DNA of 64,000 bases from a virus, in IMG/VR virus record IMGVR_UViG_3300046532_001566, positions 52,086 through 116,085 of that record, one strand, 5' to 3'. This document shows positions 4,522 to 12,906 of this stretch, piece by piece (position 1 is the stretch's first letter; each line of letters begins with the position of its first letter). The translations under genes and the position numbers were made by a program. The notes beneath the pieces were generated by a model. The model ran no database searches, was not told the origin of the DNA, and saw nothing but the letters and a program-made list of their open reading frames with translations.

Positions 4522-5132
4522 TCTGTGTCTATGCTCCTTGCTATAACATCTAATTGCCCTGGTTCCATTCTATCAAGTAAGGCTTGCGCCACATCTGATG
4601 AATAAAGTATCCAAGGACTTATTCTTCCCATGACTATCGAATTCATGGCTGTTGCTGTTGGTACTTCTTGAAAATAGTTCTCCCAAAATCTATCAGTGTC
4701 TTCTTCGCTCCATGCTTTCATTAATAACACTATGCGTTCTACTGCACGTTCTATTGTTTCAGTTTTACTGCTTTCCTGAATATAAAGAGAATATGTTCCT
4801 TTCTTTGTCCAGTTACTTAGTTTAACACTATGTTTAAATAGCCATTTAATAAACTTTTGTGTTTCTGTCGGTCTGAGCTCAATTATATAATTAGAAAATT
4901 TAATAAATCCAATATAGTCAAGACTACGAATAAAATCCTCAGTAGTTCTTTCTTTTTTAGTCTGAGGACTCACATACTTCATAAAATCATACCATACTTG
5001 AAATGCAATCCTAGAAGCTGGTTCATCTATACACATCCATCTGCGTTTCTTTTCACACATATGGCTAGATAAAGTGCGTTCTCTTGCAAACTTTTTCAAG
5101 CAATACTTACATTGGTAAGATTCTACTACCAT
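4443..5132 (-). CDS. Hypothetical protein with N-terminal Zn finger
   Basis: YQCKYC...LSSHMC pattern. Lies in the replication operon. Confidence 0.7.
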   Translation of the reverse strand: MVVESYQCKYCLKKFARERTLSSHMCEKKRRWMCIDEPASRIAFQVWYDFMKYVSPQTKKERTTEDFIRSLDYIGFIKFSNYIIELRPTETQKFIKWLFKHSVKLSNWTKKGTYSLYIQESSKTETIERAVERIVLLMKAWSEEDTDRFWENYFQEVPTATAMNSIVMGRISPWILYSSDVAQALLDRMEPGQLDVIARSIDTEWWTRKIAKSPTEVSWCNKILSFRPM

Positions 5133-5617
5133 TATTTAAACAAATCCTTCAATTTTTTATCTGGTGTGTTTTTAACCGTTGCAATGTCCTTAAGAACGTC
5201 TGATCCGTTGATTTCTCTGAATAATTCTATCTCTTCTTCATTACAATTAGGTAATAGCTCAATTAACCATTCTCTAAGTTTATCTTTCTTTGCACCTTTA
5301 GGAGGGACAAATTCATGCCTCATTTTCTTGCCTAAACCAACTAATGCTAAAACTCTATAACGTAATTCCTCATGGGCACTAGTAGTAGCAATATAATCAA
5401 CATTACTTAGATCATTAACCATTAACAAATAATGTTCTTGTATCTCTGCTTGACCTTGTACTTGGCTTGCCCACCGTTGTGCCATATAAGTGCTAACCGA
5501 CTTCTTACTCTCGTCATCTAACTTAGTGTAATAGTCTCCGTTGCGGTAATCAATAGCATTCATAACTTCATGAATATTAACTTTGTGTACTGCGGTAGCT
5601 TTTTTCTTTGCAGGCAT
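5132..5617 (-). CDS. Possible clamp-loader small subunit (T4 gp62-like)
   Basis: YMAQRWAS...LMVNDLSN...LRYRVL...GKKMRHEFV resembles the gp62 pattern. Start moved to MPAKKK (ATG 5617). Confidence 0.4.
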   Translation of the reverse strand: MPAKKKATAVHKVNIHEVMNAIDYRNGDYYTKLDDESKKSVSTYMAQRWASQVQGQAEIQEHYLLMVNDLSNVDYIATTSAHEELRYRVLALVGLGKKMRHEFVPPKGAKKDKLREWLIELLPNCNEEEIELFREINGSDVLKDIATVKNTPDKKLKDLFK

Positions 5618-5622
5618 ATTAT

Positions 5623-6129
5623 TTAAAACCAAATTTTATTAAGATCAAGTACCTCAGGAACCTTTGATGATTCTTTAAGGAAGAAACTACAAGGTGCACT
5701 CTCACCTGCCGTAAGAGGAACTGTTAATATATGCCCAAACTTTAATTTAGGAACATACCATTTTACTTCCTGATACACATTTACAATTTCTACCGGAACC
5801 CAGTTAGCCTTATATCCGTTTACAGGATTAAATTCAAATGCACTAAATCCTCTGTCATTTAAACTCATAATGCTTACTACTTCTGGTTCACCGTGATCTG
5901 CTTCGCCAATTACTAAGCTCCAATCCAAGGGCATTTTAATTTCATGTTCGCCTATACGCAATACTGCGGCAGGGCAAGAGAAACTTTCTAAAAATACAAG
6001 TGGAATAAAAAGATAATCTACGTCTTGAGGGGTGCTATAGTCTAACACACTATATCGTAAATCATTATCTACCTCTGTGGGCAACCTGTCTAAATCATAT
6101 GAGTTATTGTCTACTGTTAAAATGTTCAT
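5623..6129 (-). CDS. Hypothetical beta-rich protein, possibly a degenerate Hint-like fold
   Basis: 168-aa ORF coupled to uvsW (TAATG). See findings. Confidence 0.6.
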   Translation of the reverse strand: MNILTVDNNSYDLDRLPTEVDNDLRYSVLDYSTPQDVDYLFIPLVFLESFSCPAAVLRIGEHEIKMPLDWSLVIGEADHGEPEVVSIMSLNDRGFSAFEFNPVNGYKANWVPVEIVNVYQEVKWYVPKLKFGHILTVPLTAGESAPCSFFLKESSKVPEVLDLNKIWF

Positions 6130-7583
6130 TAATATTTTACCTTATGTGTTTCGTATGGATAATTTGCTTCGTTATAAAATTTCTTTCGCTTTGCAAGATG
6201 TCTTTTAGAGAATTTTGCATTACTTGTAATATCCCATATCTGAACAAAGTCTTTGTCGTCTGCTTTTCTAATTCCTCTACCAATGCTCTGTATTGTTCTT
6301 ACAAAACTCTTACCTGGTTCAACTAGCACCAAGTTAAAGATACGAGGAATATTAATCCCTACACTAGCAACTCCATATGTTGCTACAATAATCTTATTGT
6401 TTAGTGTTTGAATTTCATTATATTCTGCTTTACGGTCTTTACTTTTCATAGAACCAGATACAAAAACACAATCTTCTAGTATCTCTTCTAGCATCTGGCC
6501 TGTTTTAATTCTATCAACTAATATAAGTGTGTTTCCTCCTTCACTTATTGATTCAAATTTCCTTGCTAGTTCGTCTATACGTTCTTTATTTGTAGTAAGG
6601 AAAGATAATTCTTCTTGGTAACTGTTATAGTCAACACTATCTTGGTATTGTAGTACTTTAACATGACAATTAGACAATACACCCTTGTCTTGTAGCTCAC
6701 TCGCTTGTAGCCTGTGTAATACCTCGCCTAAACTGCATATTAGACTGATATATTCGTGTTCTTCTTTTGGTATTGTTCCTGTTAGACCCCAACGTATTGG
6801 AATATGTGCAAAAGGTCCTGTGAGCATTGTTCTAAGAACATCAGCTTTGGCCATATGCACTTCATCTACCATAACTGCTATTAAGTTATCTGTAATAATG
6901 TCAATACTAACATTACTCTTACCATCTTTATATCGTTTGATTAACGAATTTAAGCTCTGCCACGTTGCAATAGTATGCTGGTGTCCTGCGTCCTTTTCGT
7001 CTCCAAAAAATACACCTACATCTAATCCTAAATTGACATAATCTTCTTGTGTTTGTTTAACTAGATCCTTATTAGGTACAATAACTAATGTCCGACCATA
7101 TGGCTCGCACATTAGACTCATTGCGGCTGTCATTAATGTCTTGCCGGCACCAGTTGCAATCTCTTGTACACCATGAGGGTTAGCAAGGAACCTGTTAATA
7201 CATTCTACCTGGTAGTCCCTTAATACAATAGACTTGCCTTCTGCTACATGTCCTTTTGGCCAAACTATATGCGAAAATGTATCTTCGGTAACTTGAACAA
7301 ACTCAAAATTATGATTAACACGGTTGTCAACAAGTTCAACACTCCATCCTTCATCATCTAATATAGGTAATACTCGATCTAGCAAATTTAAATAAGTTGC
7401 ACCAGCGGCTGTAAAGAATCCAATCTTACCATCCCATCTACCTAGCCGATAAGCCGGTACATGATATGCATAAGGAAGCATATACTTTAACTTGTTTTCG
7501 CAAGTTCGTCGAGTACTAGGTGAAAGATCGTGAAATCTAACATTAACTTCGTCTCGTATTTCTAATTTACATATGCCTGCCAT
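6129..7583 (-). CDS. uvsW: UvsW-like SF2 DNA helicase
   Basis: LRDYQ, ATGAGKT, DEVH, GLTGT and QSIGRGIR motifs. Start reassigned to MAGICKL (7583) because the longer ORF runs through a terminator and a promoter. Confidence 0.92.
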   Translation of the reverse strand: MAGICKLEIRDEVNVRFHDLSPSTRRTCENKLKYMLPYAYHVPAYRLGRWDGKIGFFTAAGATYLNLLDRVLPILDDEGWSVELVDNRVNHNFEFVQVTEDTFSHIVWPKGHVAEGKSIVLRDYQVECINRFLANPHGVQEIATGAGKTLMTAAMSLMCEPYGRTLVIVPNKDLVKQTQEDYVNLGLDVGVFFGDEKDAGHQHTIATWQSLNSLIKRYKDGKSNVSIDIITDNLIAVMVDEVHMAKADVLRTMLTGPFAHIPIRWGLTGTIPKEEHEYISLICSLGEVLHRLQASELQDKGVLSNCHVKVLQYQDSVDYNSYQEELSFLTTNKERIDELARKFESISEGGNTLILVDRIKTGQMLEEILEDCVFVSGSMKSKDRKAEYNEIQTLNNKIIVATYGVASVGINIPRIFNLVLVEPGKSFVRTIQSIGRGIRKADDKDFVQIWDITSNAKFSKRHLAKRKKFYNEANYPYETHKVKY

Positions 7584-7589
7584 AGTATT

Positions 7590-7618
7590 ATTATACATCC
7601 TTATCAAGTGAAAGTAAA
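7590..7618 (-). promoter_or_regulatory. Sigma70-like promoter of uvsW
   Basis: TTTACT-17nt-TATAAT, with ATG 6 nt past the -10 box. Confidence 0.55.
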
Positions 7619-7632
7619 GCTTCTTGATAGCC

Positions 7633-7664
7633 GAAAGAAAAGGTACCCTCCCGAAGGAGGGTAC
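7633..7664 (-). terminator. Rho-independent terminator with UUCG loop
   Basis: GTACCCTCC-TTCG-GGAGGGTAC followed by CTTTTCTTT on the minus strand. Confidence 0.85.
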
Positions 7665-7666
7665 TA

Positions 7667-7700
7667 AATAGGTGCCACCACGCAAATGTCAACACCTATT
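7667..7700 (-). promoter_or_regulatory. Hairpin whose loop is antisense to the translation start of the ATPase gene (9192-9218)
   Basis: AATAGGTGTT-GACATTTGCGTGGT-GGCACCTATT. GTTGACATTT and GCGTGGT are complementary to AAATGTCAGC and ACCACGC, which flank the ATPase SD. Confidence 0.6.
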
Positions 7701-7705
7701 AAACT

Positions 7706-8143
7706 CTAATTACATGCCTTAACCGCAAGTGCCAATGTAGCAAGATTTAAATCTTGGAACATGGTCTTACCTTTAATGGTCTGACCTACGATTCTCATAC
7801 GGTTCTTACCAACATAGCTGGTAGCCGGAATCATAATAAAGCCTGTGTCTCGTTCTAAACGAGAAGCATCTACCTTAGGTAATGCTGGTTCCGAATCCAA
7901 TCGAATTTGGTAATTCACAATACCGTTCTGCTTAAAATTAACATAAACTGTGTCTGCATTCGCAGTAACATTTCTTTGCTTAGTTGAGGTAACTTTGCAA
8001 TATGAATTGTCAGACATTGCATTAACTGATACAACCGTCTTCCACATCTTACCTTTATACGTTGTCTTACTGTCCTCTGCCGCAAGAGCACTAGTACTTA
8101 CTAGTGCCAATGTTGCTGTCATTAAAAATAATTTCTTAAACAT
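7706..8143 (-). CDS. Exported protein with Sec signal peptide
   Basis: MFKKLFLMTATLALVSTSALA is a typical signal peptide. AGGAGG SD upstream. Confidence 0.75.
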   Translation of the reverse strand: MFKKLFLMTATLALVSTSALAAEDSKTTYKGKMWKTVVSVNAMSDNSYCKVTSTKQRNVTANADTVYVNFKQNGIVNYQIRLDSEPALPKVDASRLERDTGFIMIPATSYVGKNRMRIVGQTIKGKTMFQDLNLATLALAVKACN

Positions 8144-8158
8144 TATTAAATGCCTCCT

Positions 8159-9199
8159 TTAAAAGCTTCGTTTCATTACTGTAGTTTCTGCAAGACGTTT
8201 CCATTTACCATCCACACCAGTCATCTTGCAAAGATCCGCAACCTTAATCACTGTACGAAGTGAAAGCTCACGAAGTCTGTCCTGGTTAGTTTCTACGTAA
8301 TCGTATATCATCTTATTTTCAGCTTCACTAAAGTTATAAGAGTTTAACATACCATCTCGCATAATTTGTTTGATACGAAGCATCTTGTCGTATGCTGAAT
8401 CAAGTGTAAGATCCAAATAGTGACAACGTGACTCAAGAGCACTAAGATGATCTTTAAGTTTTGCACTTCGTACATGCTCAAATTTAATGTTAGTAATAAA
8501 AATTGCACTACCTTTAAATTCAAAACGATCCGGAACACCTTCCCTACGCAACATTGAGGAATCTGTGTTCCAGCAAATAATACGTTTCTTAGAACTATCT
8601 AATGCCGCTTTAAGAATATTCAAGGACAAATCATCCATTAACACACTATCGCAATCATCAAATACTAATACGTTTCCGGCATCTGCATACTGAAACAATT
8701 TGCAGTACAAACCAATTGGACTCATTGCACCCTTAACAACTTCAAAACGAGGAGTCATATTAGCAATTTTATCAAACATGGCCGCTTTTTCAAGTGTTCG
8801 TTCTACACCAAACGATTTACCAACACCTGGAGGTCCTACAACAATCATTGCACGAACTGTACCTTCAATTGCCGCTTCTGTCATGTCCTCAAGGATTTCA
8901 AAACGTTCTGCAATCTCTTCCAAACGTGTTGCATCATATTCTGCATCGTGCTTTTCTGCTGACGGAAGATTACTATCTACTTCAGGAGTAAATGCTTCAC
9001 TTGCATTAGCCGGAACAATGTCTTCCATGCTTGCTACTTTAACACGAATCTGTTTGTCTGCAAAATCTCCAAATGAGTCATCTGCAACAACGGTTACATA
9101 ACCGCCTTTTTCATTGTAGTCTGCTACTAATTGCAGTACTTTATTATGTACTGTAAAAGTGCGGTATTTTCCGTTTGTAATTTTTATAAAAGCTGACAT
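8159..9199 (-). CDS. AAA+/P-loop ATPase with N-terminal beta domain
   Basis: Walker A GPPGVGKS, Walker B VLVFDDCD, sensor FITN, Arg finger ALESRC. Confidence 0.85.
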   Translation of the reverse strand: MSAFIKITNGKYRTFTVHNKVLQLVADYNEKGGYVTVVADDSFGDFADKQIRVKVASMEDIVPANASEAFTPEVDSNLPSAEKHDAEYDATRLEEIAERFEILEDMTEAAIEGTVRAMIVVGPPGVGKSFGVERTLEKAAMFDKIANMTPRFEVVKGAMSPIGLYCKLFQYADAGNVLVFDDCDSVLMDDLSLNILKAALDSSKKRIICWNTDSSMLRREGVPDRFEFKGSAIFITNIKFEHVRSAKLKDHLSALESRCHYLDLTLDSAYDKMLRIKQIMRDGMLNSYNFSEAENKMIYDYVETNQDRLRELSLRTVIKVADLCKMTGVDGKWKRLAETTVMKRSF

Positions 9200-9236
9200 T
9201 TAATTTCCTTTGCGTGGTTAAACTCTCATTATATAT

Positions 9237-9270
9237 AGTATAGCACCAGTTGGACCTAATGTCAACCTTT
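9237..9270 (-). promoter_or_regulatory. Early promoter (AAAGG-TTGACA-17-TATACT)
   Basis: Exact 17-nt spacing. The same extended motif occurs at 9429-9462 and 26915-26948. Confidence 0.75.
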
Positions 9271-9390
9271 ATTTTGCTTTTTTTGCAAGTTTTTTTGATA
9301 TAATTTCAAAAAATTACGGCAATTTTGTTCAGCAACCTTATCGCCTAAACTTTTATAGTGTGCAATATTTGCTTTCATTGCTTCTTCCAT
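9262..9390 (-). CDS. Small early protein, 42 aa (MEEAMKANIAHYKSLGDKVAEQNCRNFLKLYQKNLQKKQNKG)
   Basis: Translated by hand, below the ORF-track cutoff. Directly downstream of the promoter at 9429-9462. Confidence 0.55.
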   Translation of the reverse strand: MEEAMKANIAHYKSLGDKVAEQNCRNFLKLYQKNLQKKQNKG

Positions 9391-9428
9391 TTGCTTGACC
9401 TTTGTTGCTGTTTCCTTATTGTATATAC

Positions 9429-9462
9429 AGTATACGGCCTTTTATCCTAAAGAGCAACCTTT
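9429..9462 (-). promoter_or_regulatory. Early promoter (AAAGG-TTGCTC-17-TATACT)
   Basis: Matches the motif at 9237 and 26915. Confidence 0.6.
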
Positions 9463-9473
9463 TTCTGGTCCGC

Positions 9474-9543
9474 TAAGTCGTTGATTTATAAGGAAATAGT
9501 AAAATAATTGTAAAATAATTTCTCTATATAAATCAACGACTTA
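9474..9543. repeat. 17-bp perfect inverted repeat, each arm an IHF-consensus box
   Basis: TAAGTCGTTGATTTATA (9474-9490) / TATAAATCAACGACTTA (9527-9543). AATCAACGACTTA fits WATCAANNNNTTR. Confidence 0.8.
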
Positions 9544-10002
9544 CCGTAATTCCACATCTTCAAGTCCAGCCACCCGTAATTTAGTGATATTATTGATCTG
9601 AAACGACTTTGCATCCAGGGCTTTTGTGAGGCCTATAAACTTATTCCTCAATAATGCAAATTCATTGATGAGATTTTCCATTTGAGCCACTTCCGGCTCT
9701 CCATCTGTGTACTTTTCTGCGTCTCGACTGCTCAAAGTACGGTTGTAATGCTCTGTAAACTGTCTAAATTTAGCAGATCGTACTTTTCTAAGCTCAATGT
9801 TCAAATGTTCAAGGATTGCTTCAATTTCTTGAAGCTGATTAAATCTCCATTCCACTTGTCCAGGCATTTCTCTGCTTTGCTTCTCTAAACTACCGTTCAT
9901 TCTTAGCTCTTTTCTTGCTTCGTCTATTTCTGATTCAAAATATCCAATGCAAGCCGGCAAATGCGAGATATCTGTTTGAACTTTTCGGTACCAGGTGCTC
10001 AC
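9541..10002 (-). CDS. uvsY: UvsY-like recombination mediator
   Basis: Helical 153-aa protein with ..AEKYTDGE.. and KSFQINNITKLR C-terminus. Near uvsX and uvsW. Confidence 0.7.
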   Translation of the reverse strand: MSTWYRKVQTDISHLPACIGYFESEIDEARKELRMNGSLEKQSREMPGQVEWRFNQLQEIEAILEHLNIELRKVRSAKFRQFTEHYNRTLSSRDAEKYTDGEPEVAQMENLINEFALLRNKFIGLTKALDAKSFQINNITKLRVAGLEDVELR

Positions 10003-10242
10003 TTAGTAGTTCTCATCTTCTTCATCATCTTCTTCATAGTCTACATCTCCAATTAAATCAGTTAAAGCCTGTGCTATTTCTCTACCTGCTACAACTAAGT
10101 CATCTCGTTGCACTTCTAGGTTGATATAATCCTCTGCAACCCTAATAAACGAGTGTGCGGCATCTTGTCTTTCTTTTTTATCTAAGTAAGGCTTTAATGC
10201 TACCCAAATCTCTGCAAGCATTTCTCCTGAATTATCCGTCAT
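10003..10242 (-). CDS. Hypothetical acidic protein (79 aa)
   Basis: ORF with AGGAG SD, abutting uvsY. Confidence 0.7.
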   Translation of the reverse strand: MTDNSGEMLAEIWVALKPYLDKKERQDAAHSFIRVAEDYINLEVQRDDLVVAGREIAQALTDLIGDVDYEEDDEEDENY

Positions 10243-10282
10243 GTATATCGCTCCTAATTTTTAATTGTCTAAGTTGCTATAC

Positions 10283-10711
10283 TTAGTTATATTTTTTAGC
10301 GAGTCTGTCCAAGTATGTTTTATGATCTGTCCAAGTGATACCATCAACTAAGAATCCCCATTCTCGTTTTTGAATACCAGGTATGAATAAAGTCCAGGCA
10401 TTAACATTAGGGTCAATTTCTATCCTATGATAGCTTTCAGCTGATGAGATCCTGCAATGCCCAGGGCCTCTCCAGTGTTTGCCAGTTAGGGTATGCTCCC
10501 AATAACCGCCTCGAAGTATAAGAGTAAAGTATGACCACGGATGATCATGAAGGTCATCCGGGTCATTTTTCAGAAACTTATGAAGGAATATGTTAAATGG
10601 AAAATATTTACGATCTTTCAAGAACAAATAATATCGTTCTAAATAAGGCTCGTTACTATTTCTATCTAATATAAGTCTATAACGACCTATAGCTTTCATA
10701 AAACCTTTCAT
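10283..10711 (-). CDS. Cupin-like protein
   Basis: LHDHPW...GGYWE...YHRI metal-binding cupin pattern. Confidence 0.7.
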   Translation of the reverse strand: MKGFMKAIGRYRLILDRNSNEPYLERYYLFLKDRKYFPFNIFLHKFLKNDPDDLHDHPWSYFTLILRGGYWEHTLTGKHWRGPGHCRISSAESYHRIEIDPNVNAWTLFIPGIQKREWGFLVDGITWTDHKTYLDRLAKKYN

Positions 10712-10712
10712 C

Positions 10713-11834
10713 TTAACTCTCTACTGTTGTTTCTTCTACCTCTTCAGCTAATGCATCACCATCAGCTTCGCCGTTTGGACTAATTGCACCTTGATATGCC
10801 AAATCTTGACCTTTTGCAACAATATCTTTCATTACTTTATCAAGTACTTCATCAGTATATTGCTTGCGAAATTCTTTAATAATTTCACCATCAGTCATTG
10901 TGTATGCTAATTTGTTACCTTCCTTCTTTAACCAACCTCGAGCTTCAAATAATTCAACGAGACCACTATAAGGATCCATTCCAGTAGTGTACGGAATTTG
11001 TACTTGTACACTTTCAAATGGTTTTGAGTAACGTGTTTTCATAATCTTACAAGCGGCACGGATGCCATGTACCTGTGATGTCTTATTACCATCTGCATCA
11101 ACTTTAAGTTTTAGTTTTTTCATTGCTACAACCATAGAACTTGCATAGATAAAACCAGCACCGCCGGTAATTTTGTCATCTGGATCAAACATATCCTGTG
11201 AAGCATATGTATGATTAGTAACTACTAGTCCTACTGGGTGAGGTGCAATACGATTAACAGTATTTTTAATAAGAGCTGTCAATGCTTTGGCCTTACGACC
11301 CATATCACCTTTCATATCACCTGCTTCAAACTGGTTAACATCAGTTGGAGTAAGCAACATACCTACCGAATCGACAACAAACATAACTTTCTGTTGCTCT
11401 TCGTATGGCAGATCTGCATATTCGTCTTTGTAATTTTTCATGAATTCGGATAGAAATTTTGCTACCTCGTCAATCATGCTAACACCAAACCTCATTAACT
11501 TATCTGGTGAGGTATCAATGTCTAATGCTTTCAACCAATCTTCATCTAGTGCATTCTCACTATCGAGAAGTACTGGAAGAATACCAAGGTGTTGTGCATT
11601 TCGTACAAGATTACCTGAACAAATGTAACTTTTACCTGATCCTGATTCTCCTGCAAACATAGTAACTTTGCCTAATGGAATTCCACGTTCAAAATCACCA
11701 GTCATTAGATAGTTAAGTGTGTGGTTGCCTGTACTAATCCAATCTCTTGGATCATTAAATCCAGTACTCATTCCTGGTACTGCTTTAGTTAAGTTTTTTC
11801 GAAACTTAGAAACGTCAAATGCTTTAGTTGTCAT
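10713..11834 (-). CDS. uvsX: RecA-like recombinase UvsX
   Basis: GIPLGKVTMFAGESGSGKS, LDSENA, VVDSVG and TNHTY motifs. Confidence 0.93.
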   Translation of the reverse strand: MTTKAFDVSKFRKNLTKAVPGMSTGFNDPRDWISTGNHTLNYLMTGDFERGIPLGKVTMFAGESGSGKSYICSGNLVRNAQHLGILPVLLDSENALDEDWLKALDIDTSPDKLMRFGVSMIDEVAKFLSEFMKNYKDEYADLPYEEQQKVMFVVDSVGMLLTPTDVNQFEAGDMKGDMGRKAKALTALIKNTVNRIAPHPVGLVVTNHTYASQDMFDPDDKITGGAGFIYASSMVVAMKKLKLKVDADGNKTSQVHGIRAACKIMKTRYSKPFESVQVQIPYTTGMDPYSGLVELFEARGWLKKEGNKLAYTMTDGEIIKEFRKQYTDEVLDKVMKDIVAKGQDLAYQGAISPNGEADGDALAEEVEETTVES

Positions 11835-11855
11835 AATTATCCTCTCTGTGTAATT

Positions 11856-11881
11856 GGGGTGACTAATCTTCTAGCCACCCC
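11856..11881 (-). terminator. Hairpin after the gp32 gene
   Basis: GGGGTGGCTA...TAGTCACCCC stem, with only a weak U tract. Confidence 0.45.
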
Positions 11882-11892
11882 TTTATTACAAA

Positions 11893-12906
11893 TTAGCTAC
11901 CTGTTGTTTCTCTGTTACGAATCATACTTAAGATATCGTCAACACTAGGTTTCGGTGCGTCAGAGGATGCATCTGCAACTGGTGCCGCTTCTACTGCTAC
12001 TGGTGCCGCTTCTGCTACTGGAGCAGGAGTTGCTGGAGCCGGTGCAGGTGCCGCTTCTGCTACTGGAGCAGGAGTTGCCGGAGCACTAACTGGGTTAGTA
12101 GCTGAAGTAGAATTAGCAAACGTTGCACCATTAGGGCGATAATAATTGCCCCAACGTGCTGGATCATATAATTGACCATCAACCGAAGCTTCAAACATTT
12201 CTAGTTGAATGTCAACTTCTTCTTTGCCTGGACGTTTAGGCATAAAGTCTCCAAGATCAAACAATCCATGCTTTGAAACTGCACTTAGTTCTTCTTCGTT
12301 TAGACCACGTTCCTTACGAGCCCAGGATGATGTACTATAATCAGCATAGCCACCTTTCTGAGTCTTATTAATACGGAAGTCTGTACCACGTTCGTAATCA
12401 GTTGGAATTTCTTCCATTTCAACGTCCATTAACGCACTCTTAATAATTGTAAAAATCTGAGGGCTAATGATCATTCTACGAATTGGATTTTCTGGGGCAT
12501 TATCTTCGTCAAGCGGGCTTGACACTACTATTCCCTGGAACACATAAGAACGCTTTTTCCAATATTTTCGTGCTAACTGCTCCATGCTAGGGTCGTTAAA
12601 CCAAGGACGTAATTGTGCATGGATAGGACAAGCTTCTCCCCACATATCTACGCAAGGTACTTGCACAATACATTTACGAGATTCGTCTTGGCCTTTAATG
12701 CCTGGAAACTCGAAACGCATCATTAAGCGTTCTCGCCAAAAGAATGTGTTAGAATCGTCGCCGTCTGGTAGAAAGCGAATTACTGCGGATGTTCCTTCTG
12801 GAATGTTCCAATGGGCAAATAGCCCGTTATCACCGGATTGTGTTGAACCGCCCGATTTTGCGGCTTGCTCGGTTAGACGAGCTCGTATTTCTGCTAAAGT
12901 TGCCAT
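11893..12906 (-). CDS. gp32: Single-stranded DNA-binding protein (T4 gp32-like)
   Basis: AVIRFLP, ACPI, G.DFRINK and ADYSTSSW motifs, with an Ala/Pro-rich linker. Next to uvsX. Confidence 0.9.
   Translation of the reverse strand: MATLAEIRARLTEQAAKSGGSTQSGDNGLFAHWNIPEGTSAVIRFLPDGDDSNTFFWRERLMMRFEFPGIKGQDESRKCIVQVPCVDMWGEACPIHAQLRPWFNDPSMEQLARKYWKKRSYVFQGIVVSSPLDEDNAPENPIRRMIISPQIFTIIKSALMDVEMEEIPTDYERGTDFRINKTQKGGYADYSTSSWARKERGLNEEELSAVSKHGLFDLGDFMPKRPGKEEVDIQLEMFEASVDGQLYDPARWGNYYRPNGATFANSTSATNPVSAPATPAPVAEAAPAPAPATPAPVAEAAPVAVEAAPVADASSDAPKPSVDDILSMIRNRETTGS
11981..12078. repeat. Coding tandem repeat in the gp32 linker
   Basis: GGTGCCGCTTCTGCTACTGGAGCAGGAGTTGC at 12002-12033 and 12047-12078 (period 45), with a partial copy at 11981. 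Encodes ATPAPVAEAAP. Confidence 0.85.

Follow-up and report, generated by a model that had tools for sequence, protein, structure and literature searches.

In T4-type phages, early genes are known to be shut off by proteins (RegA, RegB, gp32 and gp43) or by local hairpins. The hok mRNA is subject to fold-back inhibition (fbi), in which a 5'-3' contact in the full-length mRNA blocks translation; its extreme 5' end pairs with the 3' end, trimming of the 3' end activates the message, and the system includes the Sok antisense RNA and the mok frame. Within a limited literature search, we know of no DNA phage with autoregulation by 5'-3' UTR pairing or by a 3'-derived small RNA. An earlier annotation of the locus studied here (the sequence-only reading) knew of no described phage system of this kind; to hold that nothing similar is known would be too strong, as there are bacterial precedents. 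In Staphylococcus aureus, icaR is controlled by 5'-3' UTR pairing through fold-back in cis (PMC7821165), and OppZ and CarZ of Vibrio cholerae are autoregulatory small RNAs derived from 3' UTRs (PMC7398697). Local hairpins hide the Shine–Dalgarno (SD) sequence or AUG of the T4 genes e, soc, 49 and I-TevI in particular transcripts, and the T4 review that covers them contains no long-range case of this kind (PMC3014915). T4-like phages also carry PeSL, dispersed terminator/promoter cassettes (stem-loop plus early promoter) that are present at ~50 copies per genome and have been proposed to drive recombination (PMC2839356, PMC4122927).

We analysed a window of 64,000 nucleotides from a 116-kb IMG/VR record. 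The window belongs to a T4-like jumbo phage that is uncultured, and a megablast search against 50,697 phage records gave no close cultured relatives. Its minus strand carries an ATPase operon with the following features.

9237-9265, minus strand: operon promoter, early-type sigma-70 (TTGACA, 17 nt, TATACT), having a TG before the -10 box and an A-rich tract upstream
9209-9218, minus strand: target 1 in the 5' UTR, ACCACGCAAA, forming helix 1 with loop bases 7686-7677
9202-9211, minus strand: SD segment of the ATPase, AAAGGAAAUU, between helices 1 and 2 and looped out
9192-9201, minus strand: target 2, AAAUGUCAGC, comprising the AUG and codons 2-3 and forming helix 2 with loop bases 7693-7684, including one U-G pair
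8159-9199, minus strand: AAA+ ATPase, T4 NrdC.10 homologue, 346 aa, gene 1 of the operon
7706-8143, minus strand: passenger gene, 145 aa, with a signal-peptide-like N terminus and its own GGAGG SD
7667-7700, minus strand: hairpin H1, 10-bp stem and 14-nt loop, carrying the antisense bases 7693-7677
7633-7664, minus strand: predicted intrinsic terminator, 9-bp stem, UUCG loop and CUUUUCUUUC tail, at the operon end
7583-7618, minus strand: next promoter (TTTACT, 17 nt, TATAAT) and leaderless start of a UvsW-like helicase, given as context and marking the end of the ATPase unit

The predicted operon promoter was graded strong (score of 11/12, with TG), and its -10 box lies at an equal distance from the ATPase ATG in nearly all homologous loci; transcription would start at about 9230. 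No further minus-strand terminator was predicted between the ATPase start and the operon terminator. The passenger gene product is predicted to be a small secreted protein, for which Pfam and PHROG searches gave no match, and the genes between the ATPase and the 3' module vary from relative to relative. The first gene of the operon encodes a T4 NrdC.10-like AAA+ protein, as judged by both homology and its P-loop AAA+ fold. It matched phrog_1250 at 1.8e-82 and, in tblastn searches, genes annotated nrdC.10, including the KVP40 and Aeromonas phage 25 homologues; a match to AAA_16 (27.6 bits) fell under the family cut-off. The motifs Walker A (GPPGVGKS) and Walker B (VLVFDD) show no variation, and the AlphaFold model (pLDDT of 80.5) resembles the AAA+ modules of RFC, ORC, RuvB and NorQ.

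The start region of this gene is complementary to the 3' end of its own operon. Across the start region, the minus strand reads ACCACGC (9218-9212), AAAGGAAAUU (9211-9202) and AAAUGUCAGC (9201-9192), with the AUG at 9199-9197; the antisense stretch GUUGACAUUUGCGUGGU lies on the same strand at 7693-7677. The sequence-only reading had reported this match, and its coordinates and complementarity were correct (10 + 7 bp, 7693-7677 against 9218-9192). The pairing can be read in two ways, either as the 7 + 10 bp given in that reading or equally as 10 + 7 bp, the latter consisting of ACCACGCAAA with UUUGCGUGGU, an exact inverted 10-mer, and UGUCAGC with GUUGACA, including one U-G pair. Duplex predictions gave the two-helix form throughout, with the SD held in an internal loop of 10-15 nt and the AUG covered.

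Fourteen of the 17 antisense bases fall within the loop of H1, the stem of which pairs 7700-7691 with 7676-7667 (10 bp, the top two pairs being U-G). The 10-bp hairpin that had been noted before the UUCG terminator is real: H1 and the terminator (which reads GTACCCTCC-TTCG-GGAGGGTAC, then CTTTTCTTTC, at 7664-7643) together have a folding energy of -31.3 kcal/mol (z = -3.27), which none of 200 shuffles matched. The predicted complex leaves the terminator folded, and the mean unpaired probability of the antisense elements was 0.64, compared with 0.40 for their surroundings. The H1/terminator sequence is single copy (allowing up to 3 mismatches, the terminator occurs once in the window), and Rfam covariance models gave no match at E ≤ 1 on either strand of positions 5000-12000. 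No promoter for H1 was conserved within 220 nt upstream in ten members of the class, which indicates that the mRNA itself supplies the module. The TTGACA in the loop was rejected as a -35 box; it has no acceptable -10, is absent from L007 and from a clade at 70% protein identity, and is the complement of AUGUCAA. The sequence-only reading had also proposed a late plus-strand promoter, TAAATA at 7665-7670, and this did not survive comparison, as L001-7 have CTAATAGG or CGAATAGG there and relatives at 92% protein identity no longer carry the motif.

The size of such a match alone proves little; its position exceeds chance. Complements of 9-13 nt in the 4 kb upstream are present for nearly every predicted terminator of this genome, and, allowing one mismatch, ACCACGCAAA was seen 3 times against 2.9 expected, which is no enrichment. 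Among 17 predicted terminators of this phage, the upstream complement falls on a gene start for the ATPase one only, and we rejected a general rule for all of its operons on the basis that 1 of 17 fits. Whole-region duplex energy had no discriminating power (-26.0 kcal/mol for the 47-nt start region against 2.5 kb, with unrelated start regions at about -24 and a rank of 15 of 59), and loop-centred and pre-terminator tests were used instead. When the 17-nt loop was scanned against 38,680 windows on both strands of the 116-kb record, its best non-self target was its own start region, at -22.6 kcal/mol (mean of -7.9 and sd of 2.4 across windows; ~6 sd below the mean). The runner-up reached -20.3, and the next-best sites in the genome are not gene starts. 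The motif ACCACGCRAA occurs in the record at the two partner sites only. Loop-to-linear pairing in cis is a pseudoknot, which folding programs cannot score with H1 intact; after the cost of opening H1, net binding was -9.6 kcal/mol, a value reached by 1 of 100 shuffled start regions. The corresponding values were -13 to -19 kcal/mol in five relatives, with averages of -2 to -5 for shuffled start regions.

We carried out the comparison of homologous loci that had been proposed as a check, tabulating base pairs between the 5' and 3' segments by script, and found that loop and start region change together. The hairpin-plus-terminator module persists, with compensatory changes, in relatives whose protein identity is 92% or 70%. 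In helix 1, ACCACGCAAA/UUUGCGUGGU becomes ACCACGCGAA/UUCGCGUGGU in L001-6 (A to G matched by U to C), CAUUCCACGCAAA/UUUGCGUGGAAUG in L014, L015 and L094, and AUCCACGCAAA/UUUGCGUGGAU in L017-20 and L095; the 70% clade shows A to U with U to A, plus a paired U/A indel. Helix 2 is kept in the 70% clade as GUCAGC with GCUGAC, and L094 has GUCGGC with GCUGAC, a G-U pair. Such G-U pairs, found in helix 2 of both the window and L094, are compatible with RNA pairing and not with DNA identity. The H1 fold is also kept in the 70% clade with other stem letters (UACCGAC/GUCGGUA). Some relatives lack parts of the arrangement: in L007, helix 2 has been lost and net binding does not beat that of shuffles (35/100); L096 (65% identity) retains the UTR motif and has no module within 3 kb; and most members of a clade near 60% identity lack the module. 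The conserved UTR block CACGCAAAGGAA could serve another role as well. Where the module is present, its distance past the stop codon ranges from 10 to ~2,160 nt, and the terminator stem follows it after 0-31 nt in every case; its place is tied to the close of the unit and not to the ATPase gene.

Immediately ahead of the operon terminator, 52 of 112 unique homologous loci have a complement of their own start region at p ≤ 0.05 (5.6 expected) and 25 at p ≤ 0.01 (1.1 expected), counts that come from phylogenetically related loci and hence not from independent events. These complements form at least 10 clade-specific sequence classes, which are directed at the SD and its private flanks, at the AUG and its codons, or at the UTR further upstream; a UAGCUCCU class and a UCUGUGUCA class are among them. 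In 51 of 105 loci, no other gene start on the same strand matched as well as the ATPase start region. Mapped onto the ATPase tree, the classes required 14 changes, compared with 53-62 for shuffled labels. A permutation test on class representatives gave p < 5e-5, which serves as illustration only, the representatives having been picked for having a match. Twelve cultured T4-like phages (T2, KVP40, PA5oct and nine others), included as a method control, gave no signal (all p > 0.09). The core idea of the sequence-only reading, an antisense loop beside the terminator directed at its own start region, is thus backed by compensatory changes, by G-U tolerance and by independent modules in other clades.

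Our main reading, to which we give a probability of roughly two in three, is that the 3' module negatively regulates its own ATPase operon by pairing with the start region. We infer that this pairing forms in vivo and represses rather than stabilises. The operon mRNA would carry its negative regulator at its 3' end, where the H1 loop, held beside the terminator, would pair with the 5' UTR upstream of the SD and with the AUG and codons 2-3. In the resulting two-helix complex, the SD would be trapped in a short internal loop and the start codon covered, 30S subunits would be kept off and ATPase synthesis would stop. The regulator would be present only after transcription has reached the operon end, and ATPase output would be limited in one of two modes. 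In cis, fold-back would set a limit per transcript, as in S. aureus icaR; in trans, a stable 67-nt piece consisting of H1 and the terminator would outlive mRNA decay, and the limit would scale with accumulated transcription, as for V. cholerae OppZ and CarZ.

The same 5'-3' pairing might instead shield the mRNA from ribonucleases and give it a longer lifetime, as in Bacillus subtilis hbs, with no shut-off of translation, which we consider improbable. The pairing and covariation evidence is silent on the sign of the effect, the SD itself is unpaired in the internal loop in the window's class, and hbs demonstrates that contact between 5' and 3' UTRs can stabilise an mRNA (PMC7821165). However, helix 2 covers the AUG in the window, and in most other classes the element directly complements the SD (coverage peaks at -12 to -5); given the known 30S footprint, continued initiation would be hard to reconcile with such coverage. 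Quite improbable is a module that acts as a small RNA in trans, aimed mainly at other phage or host mRNAs, with the match to its own start being secondary. In the GGAGCGAA class, the extended SD complemented by the loop does recur at several neighbouring genes (9 hits in 55 kb against 1 for the control), which speaks for this reading, but the window's target is unique, no other gene start scores well, and the AGGAGCTA class, too, is strictly one-to-one.

Very improbable, finally, is a DNA-level feature or coincidence (a PeSL-like recombination inverted repeat, an operator pair, or a -35-like TTGACA that is complementary to ATGTCA by accident): the chance abundance of inverted 9-13-mers within 4 kb and the lack of enrichment of ACCACGCAAA speak for it, as do the shuffling of terminator/promoter cassettes known in T4-like phages (PMC2839356) and the GTTGACATT common to the loop and the operon's own -35 region, but neither the repeated compensatory changes nor the family-wide excess is explained by chance, an operator pair would need no G-U tolerance, no hairpin-loop placement and no SD/AUG overlap in every class, a dispersed cassette would not be single copy, and pairing is still kept in L007 and the 70% clade, where the TTGACA is absent.

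If negative regulation by the 3' module is correct, a long-range RNA switch in the 3' end of an early operon would add a layer of control in T4-type phages and, within our limited literature search, would be the first known case in a DNA phage of such bacterial-type autoregulation. The NrdC.10-like ATPase would then be a protein under tight dosage control in these phages. The co-evolved specificities provide ready-made compensatory variants for testing and could supply short orthogonal translation switches. A broader proposal is tentative, and we hold it to be possible rather than probable: the module may be an RNA timer of the NrdC.10-like-ATPase unit in uncultured T4-like phages of a large clade. 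The transcript would end in 60-70 nt that are antisense to the ribosome site of the first cistron, translation would take place only while the operon is still being transcribed, and specificity would have been rewritten at least ten times by co-evolution, into private one-to-one pairs, as in the window, or into a tag common to several early genes. Such a timer would be an early shut-off that the phage itself carries and that needs no protein, and would amount to a natural collection of orthogonal RNA switches.

Compared with the described systems, the locus resembles PeSL in its intergenic order, in which a strong sigma-70 early promoter comes after a stem-loop terminator (7700-7590), and differs in that the hairpin and terminator are single copy and the loop is specific to one start region. 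In the local hairpins of T4, the inhibitory arm directly precedes the start and its presence is set by promoter choice, whereas the putative arm described here stands at the opposite, 3' end of the unit. The analogy to hok drawn by the sequence-only reading is a loose one: the long-range 5'-3' contact, proposed here, is common to both, and the small toxin ORF and the Sok-type antisense gene have no counterpart; the product is a 346-aa AAA+ ATPase, and there is no conserved antisense promoter and no mok frame.

As in icaR, a putative anti-RBS sequence lies in the predicted 3' untranslated part of the transcript and is complementary to the transcript's own initiation region, and the C-rich anti-SD motif of icaR is also used by many of the related phages. 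Here, the transcript comes from a phage early operon that in some cases is polycistronic, the proposed target, in the first cistron, can be as far as 2.5 kb off, and the antisense bases sit in a hairpin loop adjoining the terminator; the window's helices flank the SD and do not pair with it. RNase III cleavage belongs to the icaR mechanism, whereas the helices here are 10 and 7 bp and interrupted by a loop. The icaR 3' UTR is not conserved even in Staphylococcus epidermidis, whereas the module co-evolves with its target across a large phage clade. OppZ and CarZ are defined by release by RNase E, dependence on Hfq and a discrete RNA; the putative element described here belongs to a lytic phage. 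The likeness lies in a module at the 3' end of an operon that shares the terminator of the mRNA and has no promoter of its own, and in a putative seed that is complementary to, and covaries with, the start region of a gene in the same operon, for which we propose negative feedback; as with CarZ, the gene targeted is the first.

The window derives from a 116-kb IMG/VR virus record, and the minus-strand genes around the finding encode a UvsX-like recombinase, a UvsY-like mediator, a 346-aa P-loop ATPase, a 145-aa protein and a UvsW-like helicase. This part of the genome is a T4-type myovirus replication/recombination region. The window has no close relative among cultured phages, and megablast gave no match. 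At 41%, the Pseudomonas jumbo phage PA5oct has the best protein match to the ATPase; T4-like phages of Acinetobacter, Vibrio, Aeromonas and enterobacteria come next, and there the gene carries the annotation nrdC.10. NrdC.10 has no assigned function (PMC1524935). An AlphaFold model (pLDDT 80.5) predicts a generic AAA+ module resembling RFC, ORC/Cdc6, RuvB and NorQ, preceded by an N-terminal beta-rich domain of ~65 residues. Residues 71–82 of the protein (8159–9199, minus strand) form a predicted disordered linker between the two (pLDDT<50). We found no solved structure matching the ATPase by sequence, and its toxicity is pure conjecture.

Features of the ATPase operon
9265–9237, minus strand: predicted near-consensus sigma-70 operon promoter (TTGACA, 17 nt, TATACT), with an extended -10 TG and an A-rich tract upstream
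7706–8143, minus strand: passenger gene of 145 aa, a secreted-type protein with a signal-peptide-like start
7700–7667, minus strand: hairpin H1, with a 10-bp stem (top two pairs U-G) and a 14-nt loop
7664–7643, minus strand: predicted operon terminator, a 9-bp UUCG hairpin followed by CUUUUCUUUC

The promoter position implies a 5' UTR of ~31 nt, and no further minus-strand terminator was predicted between promoter and operon terminator. Upstream of the promoter, an A-rich tract and a small AAAAAAAGCAAAA-type dyad (9262–9390, minus strand; 9300–9270) are conserved in relatives and may be a UP element. Beyond the operon, the ATG of the UvsW-like helicase gene (7583–7618, minus strand) lies 6 nt past a -10 TATAAT and lacks a Shine-Dalgarno (SD) sequence, so that its mRNA is probably leaderless; in relatives at 92% protein identity, this gene begins AUGUCAGG, in part like the ATPase start.

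On re-reading the window, all sequences and coordinates of the sequence-only reading proved correct. H1 ends two nucleotides upstream of the terminator, and its loop bases 7686–7677 are the exact complement of ACCACGCAAA at 9218–9209 (helix 1). Bases 7693–7687 form helix 2 with UGUCAGC, which consists of the last two bases of the AUG and the five that follow; one pair is U-G. The 10-nt segment with the AAGGA SD remains an internal loop between the helices.

By size alone the match is not more than chance; its position is what stands out. Almost every predicted terminator of this genome has a 9–13-nt complement within 4 kb upstream, and unrestricted duplex energies did not single out the true start region among unrelated ones. 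The 10-mer ACCACGCAAA occurs in the 116 kb only at these two sites. When the 17-nt loop was compared with all 38,680 sequence windows on both strands of the record, its own start region ranked first after the trivial self-antisense (-22.6 kcal/mol; mean -7.9, sd 2.4), and none of the runner-up sites was a gene start. Predicted net binding, including the opening of H1, was -9.6 kcal/mol, which 1 of 100 shuffled start regions matched.

We collected 160 homologous loci from viral and metagenome contigs by protein-anchored searches that ignored RNA elements. The 92% relatives keep H1 and terminator nearly unchanged, and six of them (L001–6) carry UTR ACCACGCGAA and loop UUCGCGUGGU, an A-U to G-C double change relative to the window. 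In the clade at 70% protein identity, H1 stems are wholly different (UACCGAC/GUCGGUA), as are the terminators; GCUGACUAUUUGCGUGG is still found in a large loop directly 5' of the terminator, with flanks that follow the UTR sequence. Three of these loci (L014, L015, L094) pair CAUUCCACGCAAA with UUUGCGUGGAAUG over 13 bp and five (L017–20, L095) pair AUCCACGCAAA with UUUGCGUGGAU over 11 bp, which relative to the window amounts to an A-U to U-A swap and a paired one-base insertion. Loop and start region co-vary by compensatory changes, a check that the sequence-only reading had proposed. Helix 2 is kept in this clade (GUCAGC with GCUGAC). Codon 2 of L094 carries a synonymous A-to-G change that produces a G-U pair, and the U-G of the window is at a different position. 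Such wobbles are compatible with RNA pairing and are mismatches for DNA. Helix 2 is lost in L007, a 92% relative, and the module of H1 and terminator was not found in L096 or in most of the clade near 60% identity.

The module lies 5 nt past the ATPase stop in L014, 140 nt in L094, ~470 nt in the window's group and 1.1–1.5 kb in others, with differing passenger genes in between; its position follows the end of the unit rather than the ATPase gene. In L015, L017–L020 and L095 the passenger, ~1.0–1.4 kb past the ATPase stop, encodes a protein whose EGLVFK motif recalls RNA/DNA ligase nucleotidyltransferases; the 145-aa passenger of the window is unrelated to that protein.

For a family-wide survey, the first intrinsic terminator past the ATPase was called blind to the start region, and at each locus we took the longest stretch of the start region (-35 to +12) that had an exact complement in the 60 nt preceding the terminator stem. 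Among 112 unique loci, 55 had a complement of at least 8 nt; 52 reached p<=0.05 against shuffles (5.6 expected) and 25 reached p<=0.01 (1.1 expected). We distinguished at least ten sequence classes of complement, each of which fits the start-region sequence private to it.

Complementary pairs by class
UAGCUCCU with AGGAGCUA
UUCGCUCC with GGAGCGAA
UUGCUCCG with CGGAGCAA
AUACUCCGUU with AACGGAGUAU
CUCUCUCC with GGAGAGAG
UCUGUGUCA with UGACACAGA: start codon and codons 2–4
AUUGCCUAGU with ACUAGGCAAU: upstream UTR
The window's own class

Coverage of the start regions peaks at -12 to -5, the SD. Elements end 0–31 nt from the terminator, usually in a hairpin loop or just 5' of a hairpin, and their unpaired probability is 0.64 (surroundings, 0.40). 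In 51 of 105 loci, every other same-strand gene start was a poorer partner than the ATPase start. Classes are clade-specific, with 14 changes on the ATPase tree as against 53–62 for shuffled labels. The identical analysis of 12 cultured T4-like phages gave no signal and doubles as a negative control of the method. In PA5oct (L172, 3640–3680), for which RNA-seq data are published, a hairpin right past the stop of the ATPase homologue carries a 3' arm, AUGCUACU, complementary to positions -10 to -3 of that gene's start region; this 8-nt match is borderline (p ~0.1).

Complements matched to SD, AUG or their close flanks, and presented by a loop where their own transcript ends, are best explained as an RNA–RNA contact that would block the 30S subunit at the first cistron. 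Compensatory changes and the family-wide excess back the earlier idea of an exposed antisense loop against the operon's own start, and on comparative grounds the finding is well supported. It is possible that pairing instead stabilises the mRNA, as in hbs, a role that poorly fits elements covering the SD or AUG. A DNA-level repeat or operator pair was rejected, as it would leave G-U tolerance, loop placement and the consistent overlap with translation signals unexplained. A PeSL cassette was rejected because the H1/terminator element is single copy and PeSL is not (PMC2839356). TTGACA in the loop, the complement of AUGUCAA (a Met-Ser-Thr start common among homologues), is no promoter, and neither L007 nor the 70% clade has it. 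A plus-strand TAAATA, earlier read as a possible source of a late sense-mimic RNA, is not conserved in relatives and was rejected.

The 5' region is otherwise weakly structured (predicted -3.6 kcal/mol), so the ATPase should be well translated until the transcript's 3' end appears. The operon mRNA could then fold back intramolecularly, or the H1-plus-terminator piece could survive as a 67-nt RNA acting in trans on newly made transcripts; both modes fit. We found no conserved promoter upstream of H1, so any small RNA must arise by processing. In one related clade (L047, L087, L055 and G001–G003), several neighbouring genes share the extended SD GGAGCGAA (9 matches in 55 kb versus 1 in the control), and its complement UUCGCUCC lies in the loop preceding the ATPase-operon terminator. 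The sharing of this SD argues that, at least in some lineages, the module can act in trans, and the arrangement may be a one-to-many form of the switch. For the target in the window and for the AGGAGCUA class, pairing is strictly one to one, and in this window the circuit would thus be autoregulatory.

A 2010 review of T4 post-transcriptional control covers protein repressors, RegB and local hairpins at genes e, soc, 49 and I-TevI, and contains no long-range 3' element (PMC3014915). The sequence-only reading knew of no such system in phages; this holds for the literature that we searched, in which we found no phage example of 3' self-targeting control, but the logic is known from bacteria. The hok mRNA, to which the module had been likened, is a distant analogy only. 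Closer are icaR, whose mechanism is that of the fold-back mode (PMC7821165), and OppZ/CarZ, whose mechanism is that of the trans small-RNA mode (PMC7398697).
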